DNA from: Candidatus Woesearchaeota archaeon
GTDB lineage: Archaea; Nanobdellota; Nanobdellia; Woesearchaeales; GW2011-AR4
NCBI GenBank assembly: GCA_002688775.1
Contig: NZDH01000017.1
Span: forward strand, 1-62,559
Reading direction: 5' to 3'
DNA length: 62,559 nt
In this document: positions 1 to 62,541 of the stretch, piece after piece
Position numbering within the stretch: the first letter of the stretch is position 1
Layout: the number at the start of each line of letters is the position of its first letter
The notes under the pieces: generated by a model
Told to the model about the DNA's origin: nothing
The model's input: the letters and a program-made list of their open reading frames with translations, nothing else
The model's database searches: none
Translations under genes and position numbers: made by a program

Positions 1-318
1 ATCCTCATCCAGTTCTTTGTAGACATGTAGAGTCACTTCAACTCTATTCTCTGGATTAGCTGCTAGATATTTCACTATGGCTTCGTATCTATGATTTCCA
101 TCTATCAACCTGAACTTCCCGTTATCCTTATTTACGACGAAAGAAGAATCAAAGTGTTTGTTGTTTATTAGGCCATCAAAGATTGAATTAACGGTGCTCT
201 TTGCTATGTTTCTCCTATTGGTGAGGATTTCAAATTTTCCACTACGGATATCCCCATCCGTTATTTGATATTTCTGGGTTATGTACCCAACTCTTAATAC
301 TTGTTTTTGTCTTGTCAT
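1..318 (-). CDS. ParB/Sulfiredoxin-like (DGQHR-like) N-terminal domain protein, partial (runs off window)
   Basis: Manual translation MTRQKQVLRVGY...FVVNKDNGKFRLIDGNHRYEAI...; LIDGNHR motif; GGAGG RBS upstream; not in the ORF track. Confidence 0.7.
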   Translation of the reverse strand, partial: MTRQKQVLRVGYITQKYQITDGDIRSGKFEILTNRRNIAKSTVNSIFDGLINNKHFDSSFVVNKDNGKFRLIDGNHRYEAIVKYLAANPENRVEVTLHVYKELDED

Positions 319-510
319 TTTTTCCTCCAGGGGATTTTTTATGCCCTTAGGCGTTTATGTTACCCCGAATATAAGTTAGAAAGAGTAGCTTATTTATATA
401 TTTATCTGTTTATATGCTTCATAAACAATAAATTATCATTTTATGTGTACTATAACTTAGGAAACTGTCATTTATAATCTTTTTTTTAAACTAATTTGAA
501 ACTATAAACA

Positions 511-646
511 TAGAACTCCTCCCTAAAGTAAAAACTTAGGAGAACGTAGTGAACCATATAATCTACCGAGATTATGTGAAAGTGCCTCTCAGTTAAGATT
601 TACGGCGTGAGCCTCTCTATAGGTGTCTAAAAAAGTGAATATAACA
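511..646 (-). repeat. Structured non-coding element, copy L (candidate mobile-element end)
   Basis: Homologous to 62356-62541: TGTTA start, CCGTAAATCTT (11/11), GGTTCACTWCGTTCTCCYAARTTTT (22/25), GGAGTTCTA. Confidence 0.75.
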
Positions 647-667
647 CAGTTATGGCGAACTTTTTGT

Positions 668-934
668 TTATTCCATCTTCAAAAATTCATCAATATACTT
701 CATTATTTGATCTTTTTTCTCCAGATTAATAGAAACCTGTTTTCCATAACTTGTTTTTTTCAGGTACAGGATGTTTTCCTTTATCAGTTCGTGAGACATT
801 TCTTTTGCTTGTCCTTTCAAATCCGGTGGGAAGCCTTTTGGTAGGTTGTCTAAAGCAGTATGACTATGCTCAAACTTGCCTTTACGGGTTAATTTATGGA
901 GTATTTTACCTTTAATCTGTTCATCTGTCCACAC
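668..934 (-). CDS. Small hypothetical protein, possibly winged-helix; divergent partner of 999-1328
   Basis: 88-aa ORF, GTG start with GGTGG RBS. Confidence 0.7.
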   Translation of the reverse strand: MWTDEQIKGKILHKLTRKGKFEHSHTALDNLPKGFPPDLKGQAKEMSHELIKENILYLKKTSYGKQVSINLEKKDQIMKYIDEFLKME

Positions 935-935
935 A

Positions 936-957
936 AAAGTCCACCAAAATAGACTTT
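936..957. promoter_or_regulatory. Putative operator palindrome between divergent genes
   Basis: AAAGTCCA-N6-TAGACTTT imperfect inverted repeat overlapping the RBS of 668-934. Confidence 0.5.
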
Positions 958-998
958 GAATGACAAGATTTATATACTTTTGCTTTTAATTAAGTGTT

Positions 999-1328
999 AT
1001 GGGAGAAAAATCATTACTAGTAAGGTTAACTGGAGAAATGCCTTTATTTAAGATAATTGACTTTCTATTAGACAATAAAGGCATGGATTTCAGCAAGTTA
1101 GACATTTCAAAAGGCGCAGACATATCAAGGGCCTCTTTATTCAATTATTGGGAAGAGATAGAAAAGCACGGAATTGTAAAAGTAACAAGGAGTTTTGGTA
1201 AAACAAAACTATACACATTAAACACTAAAAATCCAGTCGCGCAAAAAATAATTGAATTGGAAAAAACCCTTATTGCCGAAGCAATGAATAACACCGGTAA
1301 AAGGAAAGAAATAGTTCTAAAACATTAA
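999..1328 (+). CDS. Winged-helix transcriptional regulator
   Basis: KIIDFLL...SKLDISKGADISRASLFNYW...GIVKVTRSFGKTKLYTLN wHTH pattern. Confidence 0.8.
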   Translation: MGEKSLLVRLTGEMPLFKIIDFLLDNKGMDFSKLDISKGADISRASLFNYWEEIEKHGIVKVTRSFGKTKLYTLNTKNPVAQKIIELEKTLIAEAMNNTGKRKEIVLKH

Positions 1329-1403
1329 ATTCTCACAATCTTTTAAATAACTCAATCCTCAAAGCAGAATTAAGCTACTCCTTATGCAAAAATCCATAAA
1401 CTT

Positions 1404-4118
1404 CTAAGATTCTTTCAAACTCTCTAGAACACTGCCCAATTTATCCAAATTAGAACCAATACCTTCCCAATCACCTTTACGCATTGATTCTTCAATGTCA
1501 TTGTAATAGTCCTGCGCAGATTCGATAAGCTCTTTTGCAGATTTTTCCACTCCTTTTTCAGCAACAACTATTCTCTTGGATTTTCCAAACAAAACTTCAA
1601 GTGCTTCACCTAAATTCTCTTCCATCACAACATTGATACCATCAGATACCAAAACTCGTTTTAGCTCCGGTAATTGGCCGGTTTCTGCTTCTATGTAAAG
1701 TGGTTCTATGTAAAGAATGCTGTCCATTATTGGTATTACAAGCAGATTCCCCCTTGTAACCCGTGAGCCTTGCTGGCTCCACAAAGTAAGCTGCTGTGAA
1801 ATCTCTGAATCCTGGTCGATCCTTGCTTCAATCTGGAGGGGACCATAAACCAGCTTGTCTTTTGGAAATTTATATACTACAAGTTTTCCATAATCGTCCC
1901 CATCAGACCGTGCAGCCATCCATGCCACCATGTTGTCTTTCTTTATTGGGGAGAAAGAGGTCATCAGCACAAATTCTTCCTTATTCTCACCGGGAAGTTT
2001 CATGATTATATAATAAGGATCTACCTTAACTTTTCGCCCGACACCGTAAACTTCACTCGGAATTTGCCAGGCATCTTCCTTATTGTAAAAGACCTTGACA
2101 TCTTCCATGTGATATGTGCTGTAAATATGGGTCTGTATATTGAATAAGTCTACTGGATACCTTATGTGCTTTCTCAAACCTTCCGGCATGCTGCTTATCT
2201 TCTTAAACTTGTTAGGGAATATTTTAGCATAGGTATCCATTAAAGGACCAGAAGTATCAGTAATATAGTAAGTTACCTTGCCGTCATAAGCATCAACAAC
2301 AATTTTTAAGGAGTTCCTTATATAATTTATATTGCTAAGCTTCTCAGAATAAGGAAAGTTTCCTGAAATAGTGTATGCATCCGCAATCCATACCAGACGG
2401 CCGTTGTAGATTACCACATAAGGATCGCTGTCCAAACTGATAAATGGCGTGATTTTTGATATTCTCTCAATAATATCCCTGTCAAACATTATTTTAGTCT
2501 CTTGTGTTATATCAGAAGACAATAAGATTTTAACGTCTGCAAACTTTATGGCCATTGACAATTTTTTCAGGAAAGTATCCAGCAAAATACCCCCCTTTCC
2601 ATCATAATTGATATATTCATTTGTATTCCCTTTGGGAAAATCAAACTCTTTGGTTTTTGTGTTGACCAGCACGAAATCATTGTCTGTTTCTCCATAATAT
2701 ACTCGTGGTTTCGAAATTTTCAAACCCACCTCATCAGTAGCATACTTTGGTGGGATGTCCTGGATAAGATAGTCAGGCAAGCCTTGCTTTGTGACCTTGT
2801 TAACAGGGCTCATCACCACTCCAAAACCATGAGTGTATACCATGTGCAGGTTTACCCAGGTTTTTGCATTCTCAGTTATCTGGTTTTGGTCCAATTCTCT
2901 TGGAGCTAACATTACTTGAGTATATTTTCCATCAATTTCATACCTGTCAATGTCTATGCCCGCCAGGTCATAATACAGCCTTATCTCCTGCGTTTGCTTG
3001 TATGTTTTAGTTAACGGCCTCCAATCCAGTATTCTTATATTATCTATGGTTTCAGAAGCTGTGCCCAGGATTGCAGAAGTCAGTTTTTCATCGGCAGAAA
3101 AATCTTTCTCCTCAACATTTTCCAGGCCATAAGCTATCCTGGTAAATCGTATGTTGTCCTCAATATAAGGCTTTTCAAGGTTTATCTCATTAGGCGAGAC
3201 TTTCAGGGACTGCACAATACCAGGAATTATAGTTGGCCCGACAAATCCAAACAAAATGTAAATGAATACAACATAAAACAAGATGTGCCTTTTTCTTAAT
3301 TTTCTTGATAAATAAAATACCCAGACCAGAAGCGCTATTGCCACAACAACGGCCAGCACCATCAGGATCTTGATTATTGGCAGATACGCAACAACATCAG
3401 AGTAACCAGCCCCTACAACAATTCCTTGTTGGGAGTACATTATTGAAAATCTTGAAAGATAATGTTTACCGGCCACCAATATAAAAAATATCGAAGATAA
3501 TATCCCCAGGTGTGCTATTGCTTTGGTCTTTGACAACAATATCTTGAAATCGAATACTGGCCTGGCAGTCGTTGCGGAATCCAGCGGGTTTGGTTTAATA
3601 AATTCCTGCTTAACAAATTGGCCAAAATATGATTTTAGATAGTCTAACAGGACTAGGATTATCGTGAGAACAACACAGCTCATCAAAAAACCCAGGATAA
3701 ATGAATAAAAAGGAAGTGTAAATATATAGAACGACACATCTTTTGCAAAAATTGGATCAGTTAAATTAAATGGTGTTTGCTTAAGATACTGAAGAATCTT
3801 AAACCATCCTGAAGAGACAACAAGACCAACCAATACAGATATTATTAAAGTGATGTACAGCTTAAATTTGAAAGGAAACTTGTCTTTCCCGGTGATTTTT
3901 GATGATATCCATAGATTAATGATAGCAAACAAAAAGAATATAAAAAATGCTGCAGCAAACAAGTTAATTTTAGAAAACAGGCTTATTAAAAAAATCTCCT
4001 TAAAACCAAGTGCATCAAACCATAAGAAATTAGTATATATCCTGGCTAAACTGGTTATAGAGAATATCAGCAGGATTATAACAGTCAAACCAAATCTTAG
4101 CATCCAATTCTTTCTCAT
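1404..4118 (-). CDS. UPF0182 family membrane protein
   Basis: N-terminal TM helices, DPIFAKDVSFYIFTLPF, YTHGFG, DAYT..FPYS, NYIRNSLK, RGNLLVIP motifs. Confidence 0.9.
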   Translation of the reverse strand: MRKNWMLRFGLTVIILLIFSITSLARIYTNFLWFDALGFKEIFLISLFSKINLFAAAFFIFFLFAIINLWISSKITGKDKFPFKFKLYITLIISVLVGLVVSSGWFKILQYLKQTPFNLTDPIFAKDVSFYIFTLPFYSFILGFLMSCVVLTIILVLLDYLKSYFGQFVKQEFIKPNPLDSATTARPVFDFKILLSKTKAIAHLGILSSIFFILVAGKHYLSRFSIMYSQQGIVVGAGYSDVVAYLPIIKILMVLAVVVAIALLVWVFYLSRKLRKRHILFYVVFIYILFGFVGPTIIPGIVQSLKVSPNEINLEKPYIEDNIRFTRIAYGLENVEEKDFSADEKLTSAILGTASETIDNIRILDWRPLTKTYKQTQEIRLYYDLAGIDIDRYEIDGKYTQVMLAPRELDQNQITENAKTWVNLHMVYTHGFGVVMSPVNKVTKQGLPDYLIQDIPPKYATDEVGLKISKPRVYYGETDNDFVLVNTKTKEFDFPKGNTNEYINYDGKGGILLDTFLKKLSMAIKFADVKILLSSDITQETKIMFDRDIIERISKITPFISLDSDPYVVIYNGRLVWIADAYTISGNFPYSEKLSNINYIRNSLKIVVDAYDGKVTYYITDTSGPLMDTYAKIFPNKFKKISSMPEGLRKHIRYPVDLFNIQTHIYSTYHMEDVKVFYNKEDAWQIPSEVYGVGRKVKVDPYYIIMKLPGENKEEFVLMTSFSPIKKDNMVAWMAARSDGDDYGKLVVYKFPKDKLVYGPLQIEARIDQDSEISQQLTLWSQQGSRVTRGNLLVIPIMDSILYIEPLYIEAETGQLPELKRVLVSDGINVVMEENLGEALEVLFGKSKRIVVAEKGVEKSAKELIESAQDYYNDIEESMRKGDWEGIGSNLDKLGSVLESLKES

Positions 4119-4162
4119 AATATCTGGATATTTGAGGTAGTTTTTAAATCTTTATAAGTAAC

Positions 4163-4717
4163 CTACTCCTTTATCCTTATGCAAGTATCGCAGAATTGAG
4201 AGATTTCTGAAATAGTTTTCTTGTCCGTATCTTCAACTACACTATAAATGATGGATTTAACATTCCATGCCCTGGCCTTTCCGCTAAGGCTGTGTATAAA
4301 TTGAATTACATTCTTCTCACTGTTGTATAGCATTAGTGTAGTTAGCGAGTCTAATATAAGCACTTTATCATTGCCTTTAGGTATGCTTTCAAGAGCATGT
4401 CCGATAGCGATAGAAATATTAGTAAGTGATTGCGGCTGGCAAAAAAGACTTTTGCTTGTTCCATGCATTTCCGTCCTCCCGGCTACAGGTGTTGCACAAT
4501 CAATAAAGAACATCTTATCAGTTTTGATGTTGTTTCTTTCCAATATCTTGGTTACAGTCATATAGGGTTTGGTAAAAGTTGTGTACACAAATACTGGTTT
4601 TTTTGTGTCGGAAATGTACTTTAAAACTTGAAAATTTGTCTGCTACACTAATTCGCTTGGAACAACAATAAATACCAGATCATTATTTTTTATTGACTCT
4701 AAGTCTAGTTTTACCAA
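4163..4717 (-). pseudogene. KaiC/RecA-superfamily ATPase-like protein with an in-frame TAG at codon 25
   Basis: TTG start at 4717 after GGTGA RBS; MVKLDLESIKNNDLVFIVVPSELV*QTNFQV... in frame with ORF 4163-4588; LILDSLTTLMLYN motif. Confidence 0.6.
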
Positions 4718-4739
4718 AATTTCACCCGGTTTAGATTAA

Positions 4740-5168
4740 TTATACAGATTTAATGCCTTTCTTGAATTTGTCAAGGGCAAGTGCCTGTCTTTGCTTCACA
4801 AAATACTTAATCATATCACTTTGGGTTATGATTCCGACAAGCTTTTTCCCCTTCATGACAGCCAATCTTTTGATGTTGTTCTTTTCCATTACAGCATCCG
4901 CATAATAGATATCCGCGTCAGGGCTGATTGATTTCAAAGGCGAACTCATGATTTCTTTTACATTTATTATGCAGCAATTTAAATTATTAGCCACACCCTC
5001 CCAGGCCACATCTCTCTCAGTGACAATTCCAACAGGATTTTTACCCTTTAGGACAATTAAGCACCCAATCTTTTTCTTGCGCATAGTTCTCGCAACAGAT
5101 TGTATAGTATCCTTAACATCACAGGTCACGACCTTTTTTACCATTATTCTTTGGACTGCATAAACCAT
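4740..5168 (-). CDS. CBS-domain pair protein
   Basis: Two CBS repeats (IGCLIV..PVGIVTERD; IKRLAV..LVGIITQSD). Confidence 0.9.
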   Translation of the reverse strand: MVYAVQRIMVKKVVTCDVKDTIQSVARTMRKKKIGCLIVLKGKNPVGIVTERDVAWEGVANNLNCCIINVKEIMSSPLKSISPDADIYYADAVMEKNNIKRLAVMKGKKLVGIITQSDMIKYFVKQRQALALDKFKKGIKSV

Positions 5169-5254
5169 GGATATATTAAATTAATAAGTACTTTAAATAA
5201 ATGTCGTTTTTAGTCTGCACAACCTTTAAATAATTCCATTGTAAACTCTTTTCT

Positions 5255-6145
5255 ATGGACGAAGAAACCAAGCAAAACTACATCAAAGCAGGAAGGATCT
5301 CTGCAGAAGTATTGGAATTTGGAAAATCTTTGATAAAGAAGGGCAATTCAATTCTTGATTCAACTGAAAAGATTGAAAAGAAGATCTTTGAGTTAGGTGG
5401 AAAGCCTGCATTTCCTGTTCAGTTTTCCTGCGATCAAATTGCTGCGCATTTCTGCGTTGAAGATGATGACAAAACAGTATTTGATGAGCAAGTTATAAGC
5501 TTGGACTTAGGAGTTCACATTAATGGAGCAATCGGTGACACTGCATATACAATAGATTTATCAGGAAAATACGCTGATTTAGTCAAAGCAGCGCAAAAAG
5601 CCCTTGAAGAAGCATTAAAAATAGTGGATGTTGGGACTGAACTAGGTCAAATTGGAAAAGTTATCAATGACACAATCTCAGGTTACGGCTTTAATCCTGT
5701 AAGAAACCTTTCAGGCCACGGTCTGGATCTGTATAACATACATACAAAACCGACAATCCCGAATTTTGACACAGGAGACAAGACAACTTTAAAAAAAGAC
5801 ATGACTTTTGCAGTTGAACCGTTCGCAACAACCGGCTCAGGAGTTGTTGGAGAAAAAGGCCTGCCAACTGTATTCATGATGAAAAACAGGAAGCCTGTCA
5901 GAAGCCCTATAACAAGAGAAATCTTAAAGCAAATAGATACATATGAAAACTTGCCATTTGCAAAAAGATGGCTAACCCAAAGATTTGGAGCAAAAACAAA
6001 CTTTGCAATAAAAGAATTAACCCAATTGGAAATTATCCATAATTACCCTCCTTTAGTTGAGGTTAACAATGGCATTGTATCGCAGGCAGAACATTCTGTT
6101 TTGATTGATGGTGAAGGGGAAGTTACAATATTAACAAAATTATGA
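5255..6145 (+). CDS. map: Methionine aminopeptidase type II
   Basis: PAFP, AAHF, LDLGVHINGAIGDTA, NLSGHGL, FAVEPFAT, SQAEHS. Confidence 0.95.
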   Translation: MDEETKQNYIKAGRISAEVLEFGKSLIKKGNSILDSTEKIEKKIFELGGKPAFPVQFSCDQIAAHFCVEDDDKTVFDEQVISLDLGVHINGAIGDTAYTIDLSGKYADLVKAAQKALEEALKIVDVGTELGQIGKVINDTISGYGFNPVRNLSGHGLDLYNIHTKPTIPNFDTGDKTTLKKDMTFAVEPFATTGSGVVGEKGLPTVFMMKNRKPVRSPITREILKQIDTYENLPFAKRWLTQRFGAKTNFAIKELTQLEIIHNYPPLVEVNNGIVSQAEHSVLIDGEGEVTILTKL

Positions 6146-7408
6146 TTTTAATTTTTTTATAACATCATCAATACTCATTAACTCTTCCTTCCCGCTCTTC
6201 ATGTCCCTTAACTTCAGTTTATTATCTTCCAGTTCTTTTTTTCCGACAAAAACAACGTATGGAATGCCTAAAGAATTAGCAAACTCAAGATTCTTGCTAG
6301 GACCCCTATCCATAGAATCAATATCTGTATTTATTCCAGCATCTCTTAATTTTTGAGCTATTTTCATGCTTTCGTCTAATGTCTTGATCGGAATGACATA
6401 AATTTTTGTATTGGTTTTCTGCTTATTTTTTTGTTTAATGGCATCGTAGATCCTGTCAACACCAAAGCTGACACCGACTGCCGGAAAATTTCCTTTGCCT
6501 AAGAATGCTCCAATCATGTTGTCATATCTTCCGCCGGCGCAGACAGAACTTTTTACATTGCTATTTTTGATGAACGTTTCAGCAACAGTCCCTGTGTAAT
6601 AAGACAATCCTCTTGCTAAAGAAACATCAAAATCAGCTTCAAAGTTTATATTTTTCAGGAATTTCAATAATTGCTGTATCTCCTCCAAACCTTCAGATTC
6701 TTTTATCATATTCTTTATTTGCGCTATTTTTTCTTCATTATTCCCCTTTATGTTCAGGATATCGATTATCTTGCCGATTGTTTTGTCGTCTATATCTTGT
6801 TTTTTCAATTCACCTTTGACAACATCGATGCCCATTTTCTCTAATTTATCAATCGAAAGGATTACAGCTTCTTGTTTGTTTTTTTCAATACCGCAATAGT
6901 CAAGAACATCATTAAGCAATTTCCTGTTGTTTACTTTGATAACAACATCAAGATTCAGTTTTTTAAAAGCAGAATAAATCAAGGCCATTATTTCAGCATC
7001 AGCAGACATTGAAGATGAGCCGACAACATCAACATCGCATTGGGTGAACTGCCTGTATCTAGAAGAACCTACAGGGCCATCCCTGAAAACTTCCCCAATT
7101 TGGTAACGCTTGAAAGGCATCTTCATTGCAGGATTCATGCCAACAAATCTGCACATTGGAACTGTTAAATCATATCTTAACCCAAGTTCTCTATCTCCTT
7201 GATCTTTCAACCTAAATGTTTCCTTCAAAATCTCATTGCCGCCGGCATATTTCGAAGACAAAACATCATATTTCTCAAGCAAAGGCGTTTCCAAAGGAGC
7301 ATAACCATACAGTTCAAACACTTCTTTCAGAGTATTAACTATCTTATCCTTGGCAATCTTCTCTTCAGGTGCAATATCCCTTGTTCCTTTTGGTAGTTGT
7401 AAGTCCAT
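6140..7408 (-). CDS. hisS: Histidyl-tRNA synthetase
   Basis: PKGTRD, LRYDLTVP, RYRQFTQCDVD, LARGLSYYTG, AGGRYD. Confidence 0.97.
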   Translation of the reverse strand: MDLQLPKGTRDIAPEEKIAKDKIVNTLKEVFELYGYAPLETPLLEKYDVLSSKYAGGNEILKETFRLKDQGDRELGLRYDLTVPMCRFVGMNPAMKMPFKRYQIGEVFRDGPVGSSRYRQFTQCDVDVVGSSSMSADAEIMALIYSAFKKLNLDVVIKVNNRKLLNDVLDYCGIEKNKQEAVILSIDKLEKMGIDVVKGELKKQDIDDKTIGKIIDILNIKGNNEEKIAQIKNMIKESEGLEEIQQLLKFLKNINFEADFDVSLARGLSYYTGTVAETFIKNSNVKSSVCAGGRYDNMIGAFLGKGNFPAVGVSFGVDRIYDAIKQKNKQKTNTKIYVIPIKTLDESMKIAQKLRDAGINTDIDSMDRGPSKNLEFANSLGIPYVVFVGKKELEDNKLKLRDMKSGKEELMSIDDVIKKLKS

Positions 7409-7416
7409 TTTGAGTT

Positions 7417-8346
7417 CTATTTGGATTTTGGATTATTTCTATAATTTTGCCAATATAATTCATTCCATACTATCGGCATTCTTGAAAGTATTTGAAGCTG
7501 TTTTTCAATAGGGAGTTGAAGCCATTCTCTCCAATGATATCTTGAAATGTCTTTAGGCCAAGCATCCGAAATGCCCCCTTTCCCAAACTGATTATCTCTG
7601 CTCAGCTGATTCCAATGCCCCGACATCTGATCAGGATGTTGCCTATAGAAAAATAAAGGGTTTGGAAGGTGAGATGCTTCTCCATTATCTCCAAGTTCTG
7701 CTACATGTCTTAATTTTTTATCGCGATTGGATGTTTTTAAGTCGATTGGGATTCCTGCTAAAAATACATCAGTTAGTACAAGGGCATTCCCTGGGATGTA
7801 ATTAGTATTTTTTTTAGGATTTGGATCGAAATAAGTTTCCCTGGTAAATTCCCGTGCAACTCCTTTTGCAAATATTCTGCCTTCTTTGTCTATTAAAAGA
7901 TTATCAGAGTAAACCATAACTACATTGGGATTTTGTGAATTTTTTATGGTCATATGGTTAAACAGGTTATCAACAAATAGTGGATAGATATTATCGTCAG
8001 CATCAGCAACAAATGTAAATTTGCTTCTTTCTTTATTGATATATGGTTTTCCAGCTTCTATTGCCTTATTTTTACCCCCTTGGGGAGTAGAATGAACAAT
8101 AAACTGTTCAAATACCCAACCATATTGAGTTTGTAATTCCTTTAAAATATCTAATTCACCTGGATTGCTTCCATCATCTACAACAATAAGTTCAAGGTTA
8201 CCTCTTTGTAAAAAAGTTTGCATAGCTATGTTTTCAACTGCTTCACTTACATAATCTCCGGCATTGTGATCTGGCATTACAATAGACACTAATGGTCTTC
8301 CTCCAGATGCTTCAACTCTTGTATCGATACTTGGCATTTTTATCAA
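7417..8346 (-). CDS. Glycosyltransferase family 2
   Basis: PLVSIVMP, ELIVVDDGS, DADD motif, LFFYRQH. Confidence 0.8.
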   Translation of the reverse strand: MIKMPSIDTRVEASGGRPLVSIVMPDHNAGDYVSEAVENIAMQTFLQRGNLELIVVDDGSNPGELDILKELQTQYGWVFEQFIVHSTPQGGKNKAIEAGKPYINKERSKFTFVADADDNIYPLFVDNLFNHMTIKNSQNPNVVMVYSDNLLIDKEGRIFAKGVAREFTRETYFDPNPKKNTNYIPGNALVLTDVFLAGIPIDLKTSNRDKKLRHVAELGDNGEASHLPNPLFFYRQHPDQMSGHWNQLSRDNQFGKGGISDAWPKDISRYHWREWLQLPIEKQLQILSRMPIVWNELYWQNYRNNPKSK

Positions 8347-8435
8347 TGAATATACTTAAATTTAGAGTACTTAGAAAAATAATCCTATTTAAAAAAGTTT
8401 GTAATAGAATTGCATCCAAAGTGTATAATCTAGTC

Positions 8436-9041
8436 TTAGCTACCTTTCTTCGCCCTATACCTTCCTCTTTTTTCAACTACTTCCAGTCTTTTAAGTGTCT
8501 CACTTGCCATATTTGCCTCTTTCCTGTAAGCGTCAAGTGCAATTTTAATGCATTTTTCCCAGATTTTGTAGTGTTTTGACTCCAACGCTTCCTTCAAAAG
8601 ATGCAGATCAACAGCTTTATCCTCCGCTTTATCAGAGAAAAACGACAACCCAAAGTCAATGAAGTAGATTTCTTTGTTTAAGATCATATTAGAAGTTGTT
8701 AAATCCCCGTGAATTATTGAATTATTATGCAGAATTGCAACTTTCTTTCCTATTTCAACAGCTAATTTTTTATAGTTTTTATCCAAAACATCTTTTACTA
8801 ATTTTCCATCAATTTTTTCTATAACTAAATTCTCTTTTCCATCATTTTTTAGCAATTTTGGAGAAGGAAAATTGATGTTTGCTAATTTTTGCAGCACTTT
8901 TGCTTCTCTTCTTGTCCTGAAACCTCTTAATTTGTCATCAATCTCTTTGATCCTATAGGTTTTTTTGAATCTGTTCTTCTGTATTCTACTATCTACCAAA
9001 AATAGTTTTGCTTCTGCTCCTTGGGCTAAAAGTTTTTTCAT
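8436..9041 (-). CDS. bud32: KEOPS kinase Bud32
   Basis: Probable start MKKLLAQGAEA; RTRREAK, IIHGDLTTSN, IDFGL, EDKAVDL. Confidence 0.93.
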   Translation of the reverse strand: MKKLLAQGAEAKLFLVDSRIQKNRFKKTYRIKEIDDKLRGFRTRREAKVLQKLANINFPSPKLLKNDGKENLVIEKIDGKLVKDVLDKNYKKLAVEIGKKVAILHNNSIIHGDLTTSNMILNKEIYFIDFGLSFFSDKAEDKAVDLHLLKEALESKHYKIWEKCIKIALDAYRKEANMASETLKRLEVVEKRGRYRAKKGS

Positions 9042-57862: not shown

Positions 57863-57983
57863 TGGACCCGTCGGGACTTTCATCTTAAACCCGTGAGTTA
57901 AATTTTGAACCCGAAGCCTCTGCCTTTCATTGAAATACAAAACTTCGTGCAAGGGCAGCGCTCTGCGGTTGAGCTACGGGCCC
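57863..57983 (-). tRNA. tRNA-Ala(UGC) in the rRNA spacer with two introns (37/38: 57926-57947; 59/60: 57877-57903)
   Basis: GGGCCCG/CGGGTCC acceptor with G3:U70, CTGCC CT TGC A..A GGCAG, TTCA/TGAA BHB in the T loop. Confidence 0.9.
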
Positions 57984-60040: not shown

Positions 60041-62407
60041 ATGCAAAATGGTAGATCAATAATACTGGTTCTAGTCATATTAGCTAGCTCCATATTGTTT
60101 GTCAGTGCTGATTGGGAAACTTATCAGAGAGATTTGCAAAATACCGGTGTTTCAAACGGCACAGGAGACTTCGTTAATCGGTCAATTATCAATATCACTA
60201 ATTCCAGCTTCGGCATGGATTACCAGCCACTTATAGCAGATATTGACAACAATGGAAAGAATGAAATTATCATTTTCTCAAACAGTTCTTTAAAAATTCT
60301 TAATAGCACCCTGGATTTGATTGATGAGAATACTGTTGGAGATTTACTGGGGCAGCCAACATTATTTAATTTTGATTCGGACTCATTACTGGAAGTAATG
60401 TTTATTTCAAATATTTCTTCCACGCATTATTTTCTTGCTTATGAATACAATAACTCTAATTTCATACAAGAGTTCAATTTTACTGTAACAAATGGCGGCG
60501 AGGGAAGTGGAATAAAGTGCTTAAATCTTAATGGAACTAATTCATGCGTATTCAAAGATAATTCAAATTACGTCCACATAGTAAATATGGGCTCAGAAAC
60601 AAATATTTCCTATAATACGTCTATGCTAACCAACACGAAGGATACAGTTCCTGCCATAGCTGATATTGATGCTGATGGCAATGTTGAAGCTGTTTTCTGG
60701 CAGCCAAGTACTGATGGGAATAATTATGGTCTTTTGGCATTTGATTTAAATAACAGAAGCACCGATTGGAATGTTGATTTTTTGTTCAAGGCCTTTAGCA
60801 CAAATTTTGTCTTGAAAGGTCATCCTGTTCTTGTTGATTTGAATAATGATGGTAAATTAGAGATTGCAGCCAGCGTTTTTTATGATGATTCAAGCAATGT
60901 TGATTCAAGAACTGACTGGTTTACTGAATTGTTTGTCTATAACAGCAGCGGCAACAAGTCATTTTCCAAATGCGAGGAAAGTGCCGCTTCTAACTGCAAT
61001 GATGTCACCAGCGGCTCCACCAGGTGGGAAGGGACAAATCCATTTGTCCTGAATGTAAATGATAGTGGTACTGATGATATTTGTTTTATTAAAGATAAAA
61101 AAGTAAGTGGTCTTTTTACAAACATGACTATCAATTGCTACAATTATTCTGGCAATTTGATTTTGGATTCGGAAATATTGCCATCTACTGATACTGTAAA
61201 AACAGCAACAGTTGCAGATATGAACAATGATAGTGAAAAGGAAATTCTGACTGAAAATTATATTTATGCTCAAAACGGATCTCCTATTTTTTCATATGGA
61301 TTTAATTTCAATTTCGCAATACCTGCAGACGTTGACGTAAATAATGTTTTGGATTTAATCTTATCAAAAGAAGGACAAACTAAAATATTCAAAGAAGATA
61401 TAAGTACAACACAAGAAACTTTATTGGAAAAATATGCTCCTATCTTATACTTTCATCCCGATGAACAATTTTTCCCCACAACAATTGAGGCTATGTTGAA
61501 CGAAAGTGATTTGAAAGAAAATGACCCAATTTTAGATGATTTGATACAGGAAATGCCAGTATCAGTAGAAAATCTGTCTGCATCTGGTGTTACAGATGAA
61601 TATTTTTTAGATATGAGGAATGCTAGTGGTGGTTTGGCAATATTTACACTTCCTAACTCCAGTAGGTTTTTCAAATATAATAATAATGTATATGGTAGGC
61701 AATTTGAACCTAACGAAAATTATATAGTAATTCAATATTGGTTTTTCTATCCATACAATAATTGGAGAAATAATCACGAAGGAGATTGGGAAATGATACA
61801 AATTATTTTGAATAAAAGTATAAACGAACCCCAGCTAGCAACGTACTCATATCATCATGATGCTGAAACAGTTAATTGGACTCAAATAGAAAAGTTTGAT
61901 AGTTCACACCCAAAAGTGTTTACAGCACAAGGTGGGCATGCAAGCTATTGGAATACTTCAGAAAGAAGATATAATGGGTTTTTAGAGAATTTATCCAATG
62001 GTGGTCCAGTATTATTTCCACAAAATAATTACACTTTAAACATAATCAACGATAATACTAGTTGGGTTGATTATCTTGGAATTTGGGGAGAAAAAAATAG
62101 TATTCTAGGAACATCTGGTCCACAGAGTCCAGCTAACTTAAGTTACGGGGATCAGCCAAACAGATGGAACAACCCTATAGAATTTGCTGAAGATGCAAAA
62201 CCATCACAAACAATCGCAAACACAGGAAGTCCAGTTAACCTACATGCTTATGACGTTGAAGGAAACCATGTGGGACTAAACGAATCAGGGGGGATAGAAG
62301 CAGAAATTCCTGGAACTTACTTATACATTTCTTCAAACGATAGTTCAGAATTAATTGTTAAATCCAATATTTTAATCACCTTAGCAGGTACGCTGACGCT
62401 TCCGTAA
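60041..62407 (+). CDS. Secreted FG-GAP/VCBS-repeat protein with a Vps62-like domain, possibly 3'-truncated
   Basis: Signal peptide; repeated ADIDNNGKNE/DLNNDGKLE; KYAPILYFH, QYWFFYPYN, HEGDWE, SPVNLHAYD. Confidence 0.75.
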   Translation: MQNGRSIILVLVILASSILFVSADWETYQRDLQNTGVSNGTGDFVNRSIINITNSSFGMDYQPLIADIDNNGKNEIIIFSNSSLKILNSTLDLIDENTVGDLLGQPTLFNFDSDSLLEVMFISNISSTHYFLAYEYNNSNFIQEFNFTVTNGGEGSGIKCLNLNGTNSCVFKDNSNYVHIVNMGSETNISYNTSMLTNTKDTVPAIADIDADGNVEAVFWQPSTDGNNYGLLAFDLNNRSTDWNVDFLFKAFSTNFVLKGHPVLVDLNNDGKLEIAASVFYDDSSNVDSRTDWFTELFVYNSSGNKSFSKCEESAASNCNDVTSGSTRWEGTNPFVLNVNDSGTDDICFIKDKKVSGLFTNMTINCYNYSGNLILDSEILPSTDTVKTATVADMNNDSEKEILTENYIYAQNGSPIFSYGFNFNFAIPADVDVNNVLDLILSKEGQTKIFKEDISTTQETLLEKYAPILYFHPDEQFFPTTIEAMLNESDLKENDPILDDLIQEMPVSVENLSASGVTDEYFLDMRNASGGLAIFTLPNSSRFFKYNNNVYGRQFEPNENYIVIQYWFFYPYNNWRNNHEGDWEMIQIILNKSINEPQLATYSYHHDAETVNWTQIEKFDSSHPKVFTAQGGHASYWNTSERRYNGFLENLSNGGPVLFPQNNYTLNIINDNTSWVDYLGIWGEKNSILGTSGPQSPANLSYGDQPNRWNNPIEFAEDAKPSQTIANTGSPVNLHAYDVEGNHVGLNESGGIEAEIPGTYLYISSNDSSELIVKSNILITLAGTLTLP

Positions 62408-62541
62408 ATCTTGTGCATTGACACCTTCGCATAGACGACAAAAACAAAAAAGAGGAAATTGAAACTTCCTATAACATTGTCTATGCGGTTCACTTCGTTC
62501 TCCCAAATTTTCGCTAACATAAACTAAACGGGGGAGTTCTA
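62356..62541 (+). repeat. Structured non-coding element, copy R
   Basis: Homologous to 511-646 (minus strand); CGCATAGAC/GTCTATGCG stem. Confidence 0.75.

Follow-up and report, generated by a model that had tools for sequence, protein, structure and literature searches.

We report a conserved composite DNA module that we interpret, with moderate confidence, as the boundary of mobile gene cassettes and islands in DPANN archaea that are exchanged by Xer-type (XerA-family) recombinases in an integron-like manner. The module was found in a 62,559-bp stretch of DNA from a Candidatus Woesearchaeota archaeon, which is the whole of contig NZDH01000017.1 (here C7) and is referred to as the window. C7 carries a 16S-tRNA-23S operon, as identified with Rfam, and belongs to a metagenome-assembled genome (MAG) of 1.04 Mb in 19 contigs that is 73% complete (G000). 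Two copies of the module, on the minus strand at 664..513 and on the plus strand at 62343..62539, lie where an earlier interpretation of the letters alone (the sequence-only reading) had placed them, and align with 71% identity over the aligned stretch. The module combines a dif-like palindrome (S1) with a conserved folded body. It has its crossover point in the palindrome, is polar with respect to its flanks, recurs in same-strand arrays and is linked to genes for XerA-like recombinases. The left copy is the junction of an island inserted at S1, and the right copy heads a second unit that the contig end cuts short.

The genomes of DPANN archaea, which live on other cells, are tiny, and how these organisms gain and lose accessory genes, notably defence genes, is poorly understood. 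No published description of the arrangement was found in the literature searched, the supplements of which (e.g., PMC9668308) may hold relevant site lists; the module is apparently widespread and undescribed.

Exchange of DNA at the S1 palindrome

S1 has arms of 13-16 bp, AAAAGTTCG..WAAC and GTTAW..GAACTTTT, around a centre of 3-4 nt, and can be written in short form as AAAAGTTCG..WAAC-N3-4-GTTAW. In broader relatives the left arm reads AACTTCKCWTAAT-N6-7 ahead of GTTA. A canonical Xer/dif core consists of imperfect inverted arms of ~11 bp around 6-8 bp; the arms of S1 have the symmetry of this layout and its centre is shorter. The sequence-only reading had described the junction at this place as dif- or attC-like. 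The first half of that description stands, as the junction is a dif-like palindrome in which natural variants differ, whereas the second fails on arm order, size and type of recombinase.

The left copy provides the most direct view of an exchange. Window positions 631-7436 are 99.9% identical to part of another contig of the same MAG, C11, and this identity stops at GTTA (window 645-642). Past GTTA, the sequence AATGAACTTTT of C11 completes a palindrome with the left arm, after which C11 enters the 3' end of a convergent 630-aa aCPSF1-like gene that is followed, from a reading of the open reading frames (ORFs), by a proteasome-beta-like gene. Since C11 has the complete palindrome and runs directly into aCPSF1, it represents the empty site and C7 the insertion. 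The inserted island exceeds 6 kb and lies at S1 between a gene for an 88-aa protein and the aCPSF1 gene. The search for an empty site near position 646, which had been proposed as a check, was thus fruitful beyond C11: contigs from two other metagenome studies (X2 and X3) also carry the empty form, with loose ends before position 631 that match the continuation of C11 letter for letter. Furthermore, in an X3 contig of 111 nt the same element extends to position 645 and is joined there to a different left arm, which constitutes a third left context.

The overlap between C7 and C11 (C11:13883-7078) is one of several redundancies in G000, the others being between C1 and C17, C2 and C18, and C8 and C9. 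These stretches, of 6.8, 15.3, 33.1 and 2.0 kb at 99.5-99.98% identity, probably stem from co-assembled strain variants, and inflate both the genome size and the copy counts. A second strain-variable spot lies at window 7436-8436, just after the start of a histidyl-tRNA synthetase-like gene, where C7 has a 309-aa glycosyltransferase-like ORF and C11 has ~7 kb of other DNA before the two contigs rejoin at 8436. No S1-like site was seen at the breakpoints of this spot.

A break in homology at GTTA was also found outside the left copy. The right copy and loci L165 and L227 are homologous only from GTTAAAT onward, and L061 and L174 only from GTTA onward. Within the genus, homology in most pairs of the same type takes in the entire palindrome from AAAAGTTCG on. 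The sharp end that the sequence-only reading had set at TGTTA therefore applies to the two window copies and to 3 + 3 independent contexts; it does not apply to most relatives, in which the conserved unit begins ~18 nt earlier, at the AAAAGTTCG of the left arm.

We surveyed 26 places downstream of aCPSF1. Three of them have a bare palindromic S1 (G000-C11, G023 and G051), one has S1 with a complete element (G014) and one a degenerate element (G043), while in G013 an element lies ~100 nt further on. The left arm followed by other sequence was found in G011, G019 and G002, and 17 of the 26 places have neither S1 nor element. Behind orthologues of the 88-aa gene, S1 was found in 2 of the 8 places examined, and because it is so rare there it is not an ancient fixed site.

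The two copies in C7 face outward, and each end of the contig lies in or just beyond an element. The sequence-only reading had seen an element shared by both ends of the window; this was right as to the outward-facing copies, and those ends are at the same time both ends of the contig. The right copy stops 20 nt short of the contig end and its first 50 nt are the last 17 codons of a 788-aa secreted-type ORF. This ORF (window 60041-62407, plus strand) has matches to FG-GAP_3, Vps62 and NPP1. Among 42 genomes of the genus it has no orthologue, so that no empty site corresponding to the right copy was found; the ORF, beside the rRNA operon, is accessory DNA in its own right. A third, degenerate copy in the MAG (C1:49392-49498, plus strand; 31 bits and E 0.0035 with the covariance model described below) retains the tail and the G-run and has a decayed 5' half.

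Fold and distribution of the module

On the element strand, S1 is followed by one or two small hairpins, a main hairpin (H3), a pyrimidine tail, a T-tract and a G-run, such that the whole unit measures from ~150 nt in the short form to ~260 nt. The body, a conserved segment of 150-200 nt directly after S1, folds on one strand. The sequence of the small hairpins is specific to each subtype, with a CCGWAAAT block kept across subtypes. The H3 stem holds CTTCGCATAA / TTATRCGG (TTATGCG), the same words as in the S1 arm. Loop length separates short forms of H3 (4 nt; the left copy is an example) from long forms (40-50 nt; among them the right copy and most relatives), and the long loop contains an inner hairpin and a conserved YATAACA. 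The tail reads GGTTCRCTTCGYTCTCCYAAR before the T-tract, and the G-run ~15-25 nt past it can pair with CTCC of the tail; changes that look compensatory for this pairing were seen by eye in L054, L083 and L067. A TTTATATA-type promoter of the next gene lies 3' of many copies. Much of what the sequence-only reading had noted within the two copies was recovered: the blocks CCGTAAATCTT, GGTTCACTNCGTTCTCCYAARTTTT and GGAGTTCTA are present in both, its quoted 25-mers agree at 19/25 positions on recount, and its CATA...TAT stem is real, with a loop of 4 nt in the left copy versus ~42 nt in the right. The coordinates of all features are given in the table.

Table. Positions in the window of the parts of the left and right copies and of adjoining genes.
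Feature	Position	Strand	Remarks
S1 core, left copy	629..664	minus	from sequence and comparison with C11, X2 and X3
S1 left arm, left copy, AAAAGTTCGCCATAAC	664-649	minus	
S1 spacer, left copy, TGT	648-646	minus	
S1 right arm, left copy, GTTATATTCACTTTTTT	645-629	minus	natural variants part at GTTA (645-642)
5' half of folded body, left copy	595..628	minus	predicted small hairpin (CCT..AGG), then predicted second hairpin
Conserved loop CCGTAAATCTT, left copy	605-595	minus	presented by second hairpin
Main hairpin H3, left copy	554..579	minus	short-loop form; 5' strand 579-569, 3' strand 564-554
H3 loop, left copy, CGGT	568-565	minus	
Pyrimidine-rich tail GGTTCACTACGTTCTCCTAAG, then T-tract, left copy	530..555	minus	the core motif
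G-rich block, left copy, AGGGAGGAGTTC	513..524	minus	can pair with CTCCT of tail, T-tract becoming the loop
First cargo gene, ParB-like (DGNHR) protein	1..318	minus	truncated by contig end
Upstream flanking gene, 88 aa, no family	668..934	minus	common to C11; invariant side of junction
S1 core, right copy	62343..62376	plus	left-arm-like AGTTCAGAATTAAT within 3' end of 788-aa ORF
GTTA, right copy	62357-62360	plus	right arm GTTAAATCCAATATTTTAA
Folded body and tail, right copy	62377..62511	plus	
Loop CCGTAAATCTT, right copy	62402-62412	plus	
Long-loop H3, right copy	~62425-62488	plus	
Tail and T-tract, right copy	62487-62511	plus	
Stop codon of 788-aa ORF	62405-62407	plus	within CCGTAAATC block
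G-rich block, right copy, CGGGGGAGTTC	62529..62539	plus	same block in L165 and L227

The fold is evident from comparison between copies. Compensatory changes were found in 6/9 pairs of H3 in one comparison. In 82 distinct sequences, 94.3% of the cells hold standard pairs, versus 70.0% when shuffled and 27-43% with the partner slid, and 7/10 pairs have changed on both sides, with 157 double-change cells versus 43 ± 5.4 in shuffles; pairing is favoured in these statistics, because the alignment was fitted to the model. An independent alignment and fold of 28 full-length copies (MAFFT/RNAalifold) returned the same H3 helix, with 8/11 pairs compensatory. The basal U.G pair of H3 is present in 73/77 sequences and a G.U pair is kept in 41. 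Such pairs are mismatches on the opposite strand, and therefore the fold belongs to the element strand, as single-stranded RNA or DNA. The consensus fold of the whole element recovered H3 only, because the 5' modules differ among subtypes. Folds of two individual copies were not unusually stable (z -1.5 and -1.1), so that the structure is known from comparison alone.

Two observations concern the surroundings of the fold. The DNA upstream of S1 is also conserved in many broader relatives (L230, L192, L240, L196, L209, L211 and L168), where the left arm is preceded by ...CTCCCAAATT, which resembles the tail, by a small hairpin whose loop is of TTCG type and sometimes by GTGGGTTGCCTCA; this DNA may represent the second arm of a complete attachment site or the terminal part of a preceding unit. 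In addition, two contigs from RNA libraries (159 nt each, from one sample) cover window 999-1153, the start of a 109-aa winged-helix-like ORF. This is the only part of window 1-3000 covered by such contigs, and none of the RNA-derived contigs listed contains the element; they are uninformative on its expression.

In a pairwise blastn comparison of the two window copies only a 25-nt core aligns (E 0.04-0.05), which is weak by itself; it is the family that is decisive for placing the element beyond chance. A DNA search found the core in the genomes of several relatives. A covariance model built from 10 seed copies and spanning H3 and the tail (R1) gave 53 matches at E<=0.01 in 30/43 genomes of the genus, at 1-4 per genome, 9 of which are its own seeds. 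The 25-nt core motif, which lies in the tail region, was found at no fewer than 80 loci (at least 80) among species-representative genomes, in MAGs labelled as Woesearchaeota, Pacearchaeota, Nanoarchaeota, Aenigmatarchaeota and Nanohalarchaeota, i.e., five DPANN groups, and R1 confirmed 83 matches in 75 of these loci. Thus, the BLASTN and covariance-model searches that the sequence-only reading had called for revealed a family spread across the genus and DPANN MAGs. Copies of the same type are 91-95% identical between species, in non-syntenic places.

The element was also seen on contigs binned as Candidate Phyla Radiation (CPR) bacteria (Gracilibacteria, Uhrbacteria, Staskawiczbacteria, Buchananbacteria and Falkowbacteria) and as Bacteroidetes (loci L172, L196, L203, L223, L228 and L226), the CPR-labelled contig of L228 being 128 kb long. 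One of these loci, L223, has neighbours of Dcm/Vsr type and a TATA box that looks archaeal. These occurrences may reflect misbinning or spread across domains.

Cargo, arrays and XerA-like recombinases

Genes adjoin the element on either strand, which indicates that it is a unit of its own and not an untranslated region. We tallied the neighbouring ORFs, 81 downstream and 85 upstream (166), considering the 25 commonest Pfam families listed for each side. Downstream ORFs include N6_N4_Mtase (7), D12 methylase (2), AIPR (2) and ResIII (2), as well as Tsp45I, a type I R subunit, Z1, DUF4420, DUF4238 and Mrr. Upstream ORFs are mainly housekeeping (aminoacyl-tRNA synthetases, RadA, GatB and PPDK), together with integrase (3) and N6_N4_Mtase (2).

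As the sequence-only reading had it, the left copy leads into a ParB-like gene with a DGNHR motif (318..1, minus strand). It is complete, at 316 aa, on L243, a contig from an independent metagenome that adds 5.5 kb to the left island. Matches of this protein to GmrSD_N/DndB are weak (E ~0.002) and below cut-offs. The remaining cargo on L243 comprises a ParB_N protein, a D12 Dam methylase, an N6_N4 methylase and three ORFs without a family. A search for an integrase and the opposite end had also been proposed: XerA-like genes were indeed found near elements, whereas the opposite end was not, as L243 does not reach the far end of the island.

Adjacent copies on the same contig are on the same strand in 13/14 pairs, with a spacing of 1.5-7.7 kb in the loci examined. 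Units of this length hold genes on both strands, with the element at the head. One complete unit, in G021, appears to encode a Z1 and a DUF4420 protein, together with an ATPase, a C5-methylase and a Vsr-like protein that were assigned by motif reading.

Contigs tend to break at the element. In whole small contigs, H3 lies within 250 nt of a contig end in 22/34 cases versus 4.2 expected, and most of the breaks at an element are on its S1 side (manual count). L243, too, ends inside an element. None of the 34 small contigs has terminal overlaps, and so there is no sign of circles among them.

Searching 125 loci (640 kb) by tblastn, we found 13 XerA-like genes. Ten of the 13 lie upstream of the nearest element on the opposite strand, 9 of these at 101-666 nt from H3, and in L218 and L209 the XerA-like gene heads a two-element array. 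Thus, the proposal in the sequence-only reading that the element is the end of a mobile-element family gained support from recombinase genes beside first copies, and from downstream DNA that is variable and rich in restriction-modification genes. The seven recombinases tested are 260-288 aa long, and their best NCBIfam match is recomb_XerA_Arch (3/7 above cut-off).

G000 itself has two XerA-like genes, on C3 and C18. The gene on C18 is located ~0.7 kb from a contig end, and its product shares 61% identity with a recombinase encoded next to an element. Just upstream of the gene on C3 (C3:15049-15915) is a long dif-like palindrome (C3:15008-15075), the arms of which, TATATAAATGTTCGC / GCGAACATTTATATA, enclose the S1-like word AACTTCTTTTAAT...TAGGCGAAC; this palindrome, next to xerA, may represent the dif of the chromosome itself. 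Immediately upstream, the opposite strand carries a Cys-rich ORF. A stretch of ~750 bp on C3 (C3:12950-13700), bounded by the xerA region and by a paralogue (49% identical) of the 88-aa gene, has no long ORF and contains repeated CTCACTTT words.

Interpretation and relation to known systems

We propose that a circular cassette, consisting of S1, body and cargo genes that follow with their own promoters, would recombine with another S1 through a XerA-family enzyme. The partner could be a bare S1 in the chromosome, the S1 that adjoins a xerA-like gene, or the S1 with which a resident cassette begins, and crossover would take place at or next to GTTA. Such capture would yield same-strand arrays comparable to those of integrons and of Xer-dependent elements. 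The folded body may be an accessory to the site that gives the reaction direction or control, acting either as a transcript or in the form of single-stranded DNA.

Several findings weigh against this interpretation. The C7-type junction, with the 88-aa gene next to the element, was seen in C7 only, and the X2 and X3 contigs halt at 550 or 577 or diverge at 645. Neither an excised circle nor the second junction of the left island was recovered, with L243 ending within cargo. The S1 centre is 3-4 nt, or 5-6 nt with 11-bp arms, and element-linked S1 sites number 1-4 per genome, unlike the single 11-6-11 dif. A recombinase gene lies nearby in ~10 of ~136 model matches, a count that includes seeds and some duplicate loci; one adjacent pair (G048:C25) is on opposite strands; L227 has an ABC-transporter operon downstream and some units carry housekeeping-type genes; and the core motif has no match among IMG/VR viral contigs. 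Finally, compensatory changes and a conserved U.G pair are traits of structural RNAs that a duplex protein-binding arm does not need, and the invariant T-tract resembles an archaeal terminator.

These last traits point to the main rival, namely that the element is a small non-coding RNA gene of ~110-190 nt, with a promoter in the A/T-rich S1 and the T-tract as terminator, the paralogues of which either provide sites for the insertion of islands, as tRNA and tmRNA genes do, or regulate neighbouring defence genes. We consider this unlikely, although the covariation in H3, the U.G and G.U pairs and the presence of a T-tract after the tail in nearly all copies fit it well, as do the long loops with an inner hairpin (CUUCG-type loop), the conserved bulges, the neighbours on either strand that make the element its own unit and the canonical TATA-type promoter of the next gene downstream of it. 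There is, however, no canonical B recognition element/TATA box at a fixed distance, the GTTA box varies (GTTAGGC, GTTATAT, GTTAAAT and GTTTGCC), the tail pairs with a G-run beyond the T-tract, and same-type copies are 91-95% identical between species in non-syntenic places. Moreover, an RNA gene alone leaves unexplained the GTTA crossover, the bare palindromes, the divergent XerA-like genes and the same-strand arrays. The two readings can be compatible if the body is transcribed.

Strand-specific hairpins and a sharp boundary beside a conserved pentanucleotide would also be expected of a single-strand transposon end or gene-less derivative (of IS200/IS605 type, or like repetitive extragenic palindromic sequences) that is cut by a Y1/HUH transposase at TGTTA. 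This is very improbable, given that copies within a genome are few (1-4) and diverged (71%), unlike bursts of miniature inverted-repeat transposable elements, that the boundary falls in the middle of a palindrome next to which XerA-like genes lie, that TnpA/TnpB are not among the 25 most frequent Pfam families listed for the 166 neighbouring ORFs, and that the opposite end was not found. The bare S1 between convergent genes, its hairpin flanked by A- and T-tracts, and the T-tract after the tail might suggest a passive intergenic feature, i.e., a bidirectional terminator or insulator, or a leader of restriction-modification genes, with varying flanks due to turnover of defence islands. We give little credence to such a feature: a 25-nt core kept across MAGs labelled as five DPANN groups and a 200-nt multi-hairpin body far exceed the needs of a terminator, the next gene is served by a separate promoter beyond the element and in many loci is encoded on the opposite strand, and the breakpoints are exact.

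Known RNAs and other identities were also considered. No known Rfam family matches either copy, in line with the expectation of the sequence-only reading: at the gathering threshold, the whole window has only rRNAs and one tRNA, and at E<=10 the best hits to the two copies (E 0.3-5) are far below gathering scores. The copies are not 5S rRNA, signal recognition particle (SRP) RNA or RNase P RNA, all of which have matches at other places in the genome, above cut-offs for 5S rRNA and RNase P RNA and just below for SRP RNA (89.7 vs 96.5 bits). With ARAGORN, no tRNA was predicted in the window or in 11 loci, a weak negative as the tool also misses the Rfam-detected tRNA with an intron. The latter (window 57863-57983, minus strand; 121 nt, 44 bits) lies between 16S and 23S and is presumably intron-bearing. 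A protein-coding function is ruled out by indels of 10-40 nt, the short ORFs over the copies not being conserved, and motifs, the only basis on which these were judged, gave no support for a group II intron or a tRNA-like, C/D or H/ACA RNA.

An attC site reads 5'-RYYYAAC (R'') ... GTTRRRY (R')-3' on its top strand, the two pairing in the folded strand, and is ~57-141 nt long at the 3' end of a single-ORF cassette. The stem of long-form H3 reads GTTAAAT ... ATTTAAC, the inverse order on both strands, and the unit, at ~150 to ~260 nt, heads multi-gene units of 1.5-7.7 kb. The recombinases, through their size and best family, are also not IntI, which has an additional domain of its own near patch III: with the IntI model TIGR02249 the seven score 188-229 bits against a cut-off of 265, with the match in 2 stretches. 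The element is thus neither attC with IntI nor a canonical dif.

If the preferred interpretation, of Xer-exchanged cassettes bounded by this module, is correct, DPANN archaea have a counterpart of integrons and of the dif modules of Acinetobacter, and the breaks in DPANN metagenome assemblies at these places are explained. More tentatively, and with considerable doubt, we suggest that integron-like capture run by XerA-family recombinases may be the main route of trade in restriction-modification and other defence genes in DPANN archaea and possibly in some ultra-small bacteria, with the module, as folded RNA or single-stranded DNA, directing or licensing cassette exchange as a cofactor of the recombinase. 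R1 and the 25-nt core provide a sequence handle for charting the DPANN mobile gene pool. A strand-specific fold next to the core also makes it testable whether Xer-type recombinases can use structured single-stranded partners beyond filamentous phages and integrons.

By analogy, the element would work like a hybrid of dif modules, integrative mobile elements exploiting Xer (IMEX), integrons, cer/psi and XerA/dif. On Acinetobacter plasmids, dif modules bounded by pdif sites are moved by XerC/XerD (PMC6449649, PMC13141974). With these the DPANN module shares several dif-like sites per replicon, accessory modules shuffled between contexts, and reliance on a housekeeping Xer-type recombinase without a dedicated transposase. 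It differs in its archaeal host and in having one XerA-type recombinase, in many cases a paralogue whose gene adjoins the array, in sites that keep one orientation along arrays and do not alternate as pdif sites do, in the added folded body of 150-200 nt, and in cargo that is mostly restriction-modification or defence. IMEX have a dif-like integration site, tandem arrays and hybrid dif-like sites at both junctions; here an empty site and one junction were seen, and in arrays the next S1 bounds each unit. Unlike in IMEX, no phage or conjugation genes were seen, the cassettes are small and many, and there are several chromosomal sites. CTX-phi, in which a folded single strand is the attachment site, is a precedent for a strand-specific fold by an Xer core, but here the folded part adjoins a complete duplex palindrome and does not create that palindrome.

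Integrons reported in archaeal MAGs have canonical attC sites and an IntI with its extra domain (Ghaly et al. 2022, PMC9668308). The DPANN arrays resemble integrons in the divergent recombinase gene (10/13), the same-strand array (13/14 pairs), structured sites kept in shape over sequence, a central loop of variable length and a crossover at GTT. They are unlike integrons in the XerA-like recombinase of 260-288 aa, in a site of >200 nt at the head of the unit with a stem, GTTRRRY...RYYYAAC, that is the inverse of attC, and in cassettes of one to several genes on either strand with their own promoters. The cer and psi sites combine an Xer core with accessory sequences, the cer region measuring 280 bp (PMC5357621). 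In them a ~30-bp Xer core has, on one side only, a long conserved non-coding region needed for control, a layout that the DPANN module shares. Their accessory duplex, however, binds PepA and ArgR or ArcA without base-pair covariation, and they resolve multimers and do not capture genes. Lastly, archaeal dif is an 11-6-11 site, single-copy near the terminus and bound by a single XerA (Cortez et al. 2010, PMC2958812; PMC8371274). The likenesses are the imperfect inverted repeat, the adjacency of xerA and dif in some genomes, and the conserved flanks noted for dif in Thermococcales, whereas S1 recurs several times in a genome, has fewer nucleotides at its centre and lies next to variable genes.

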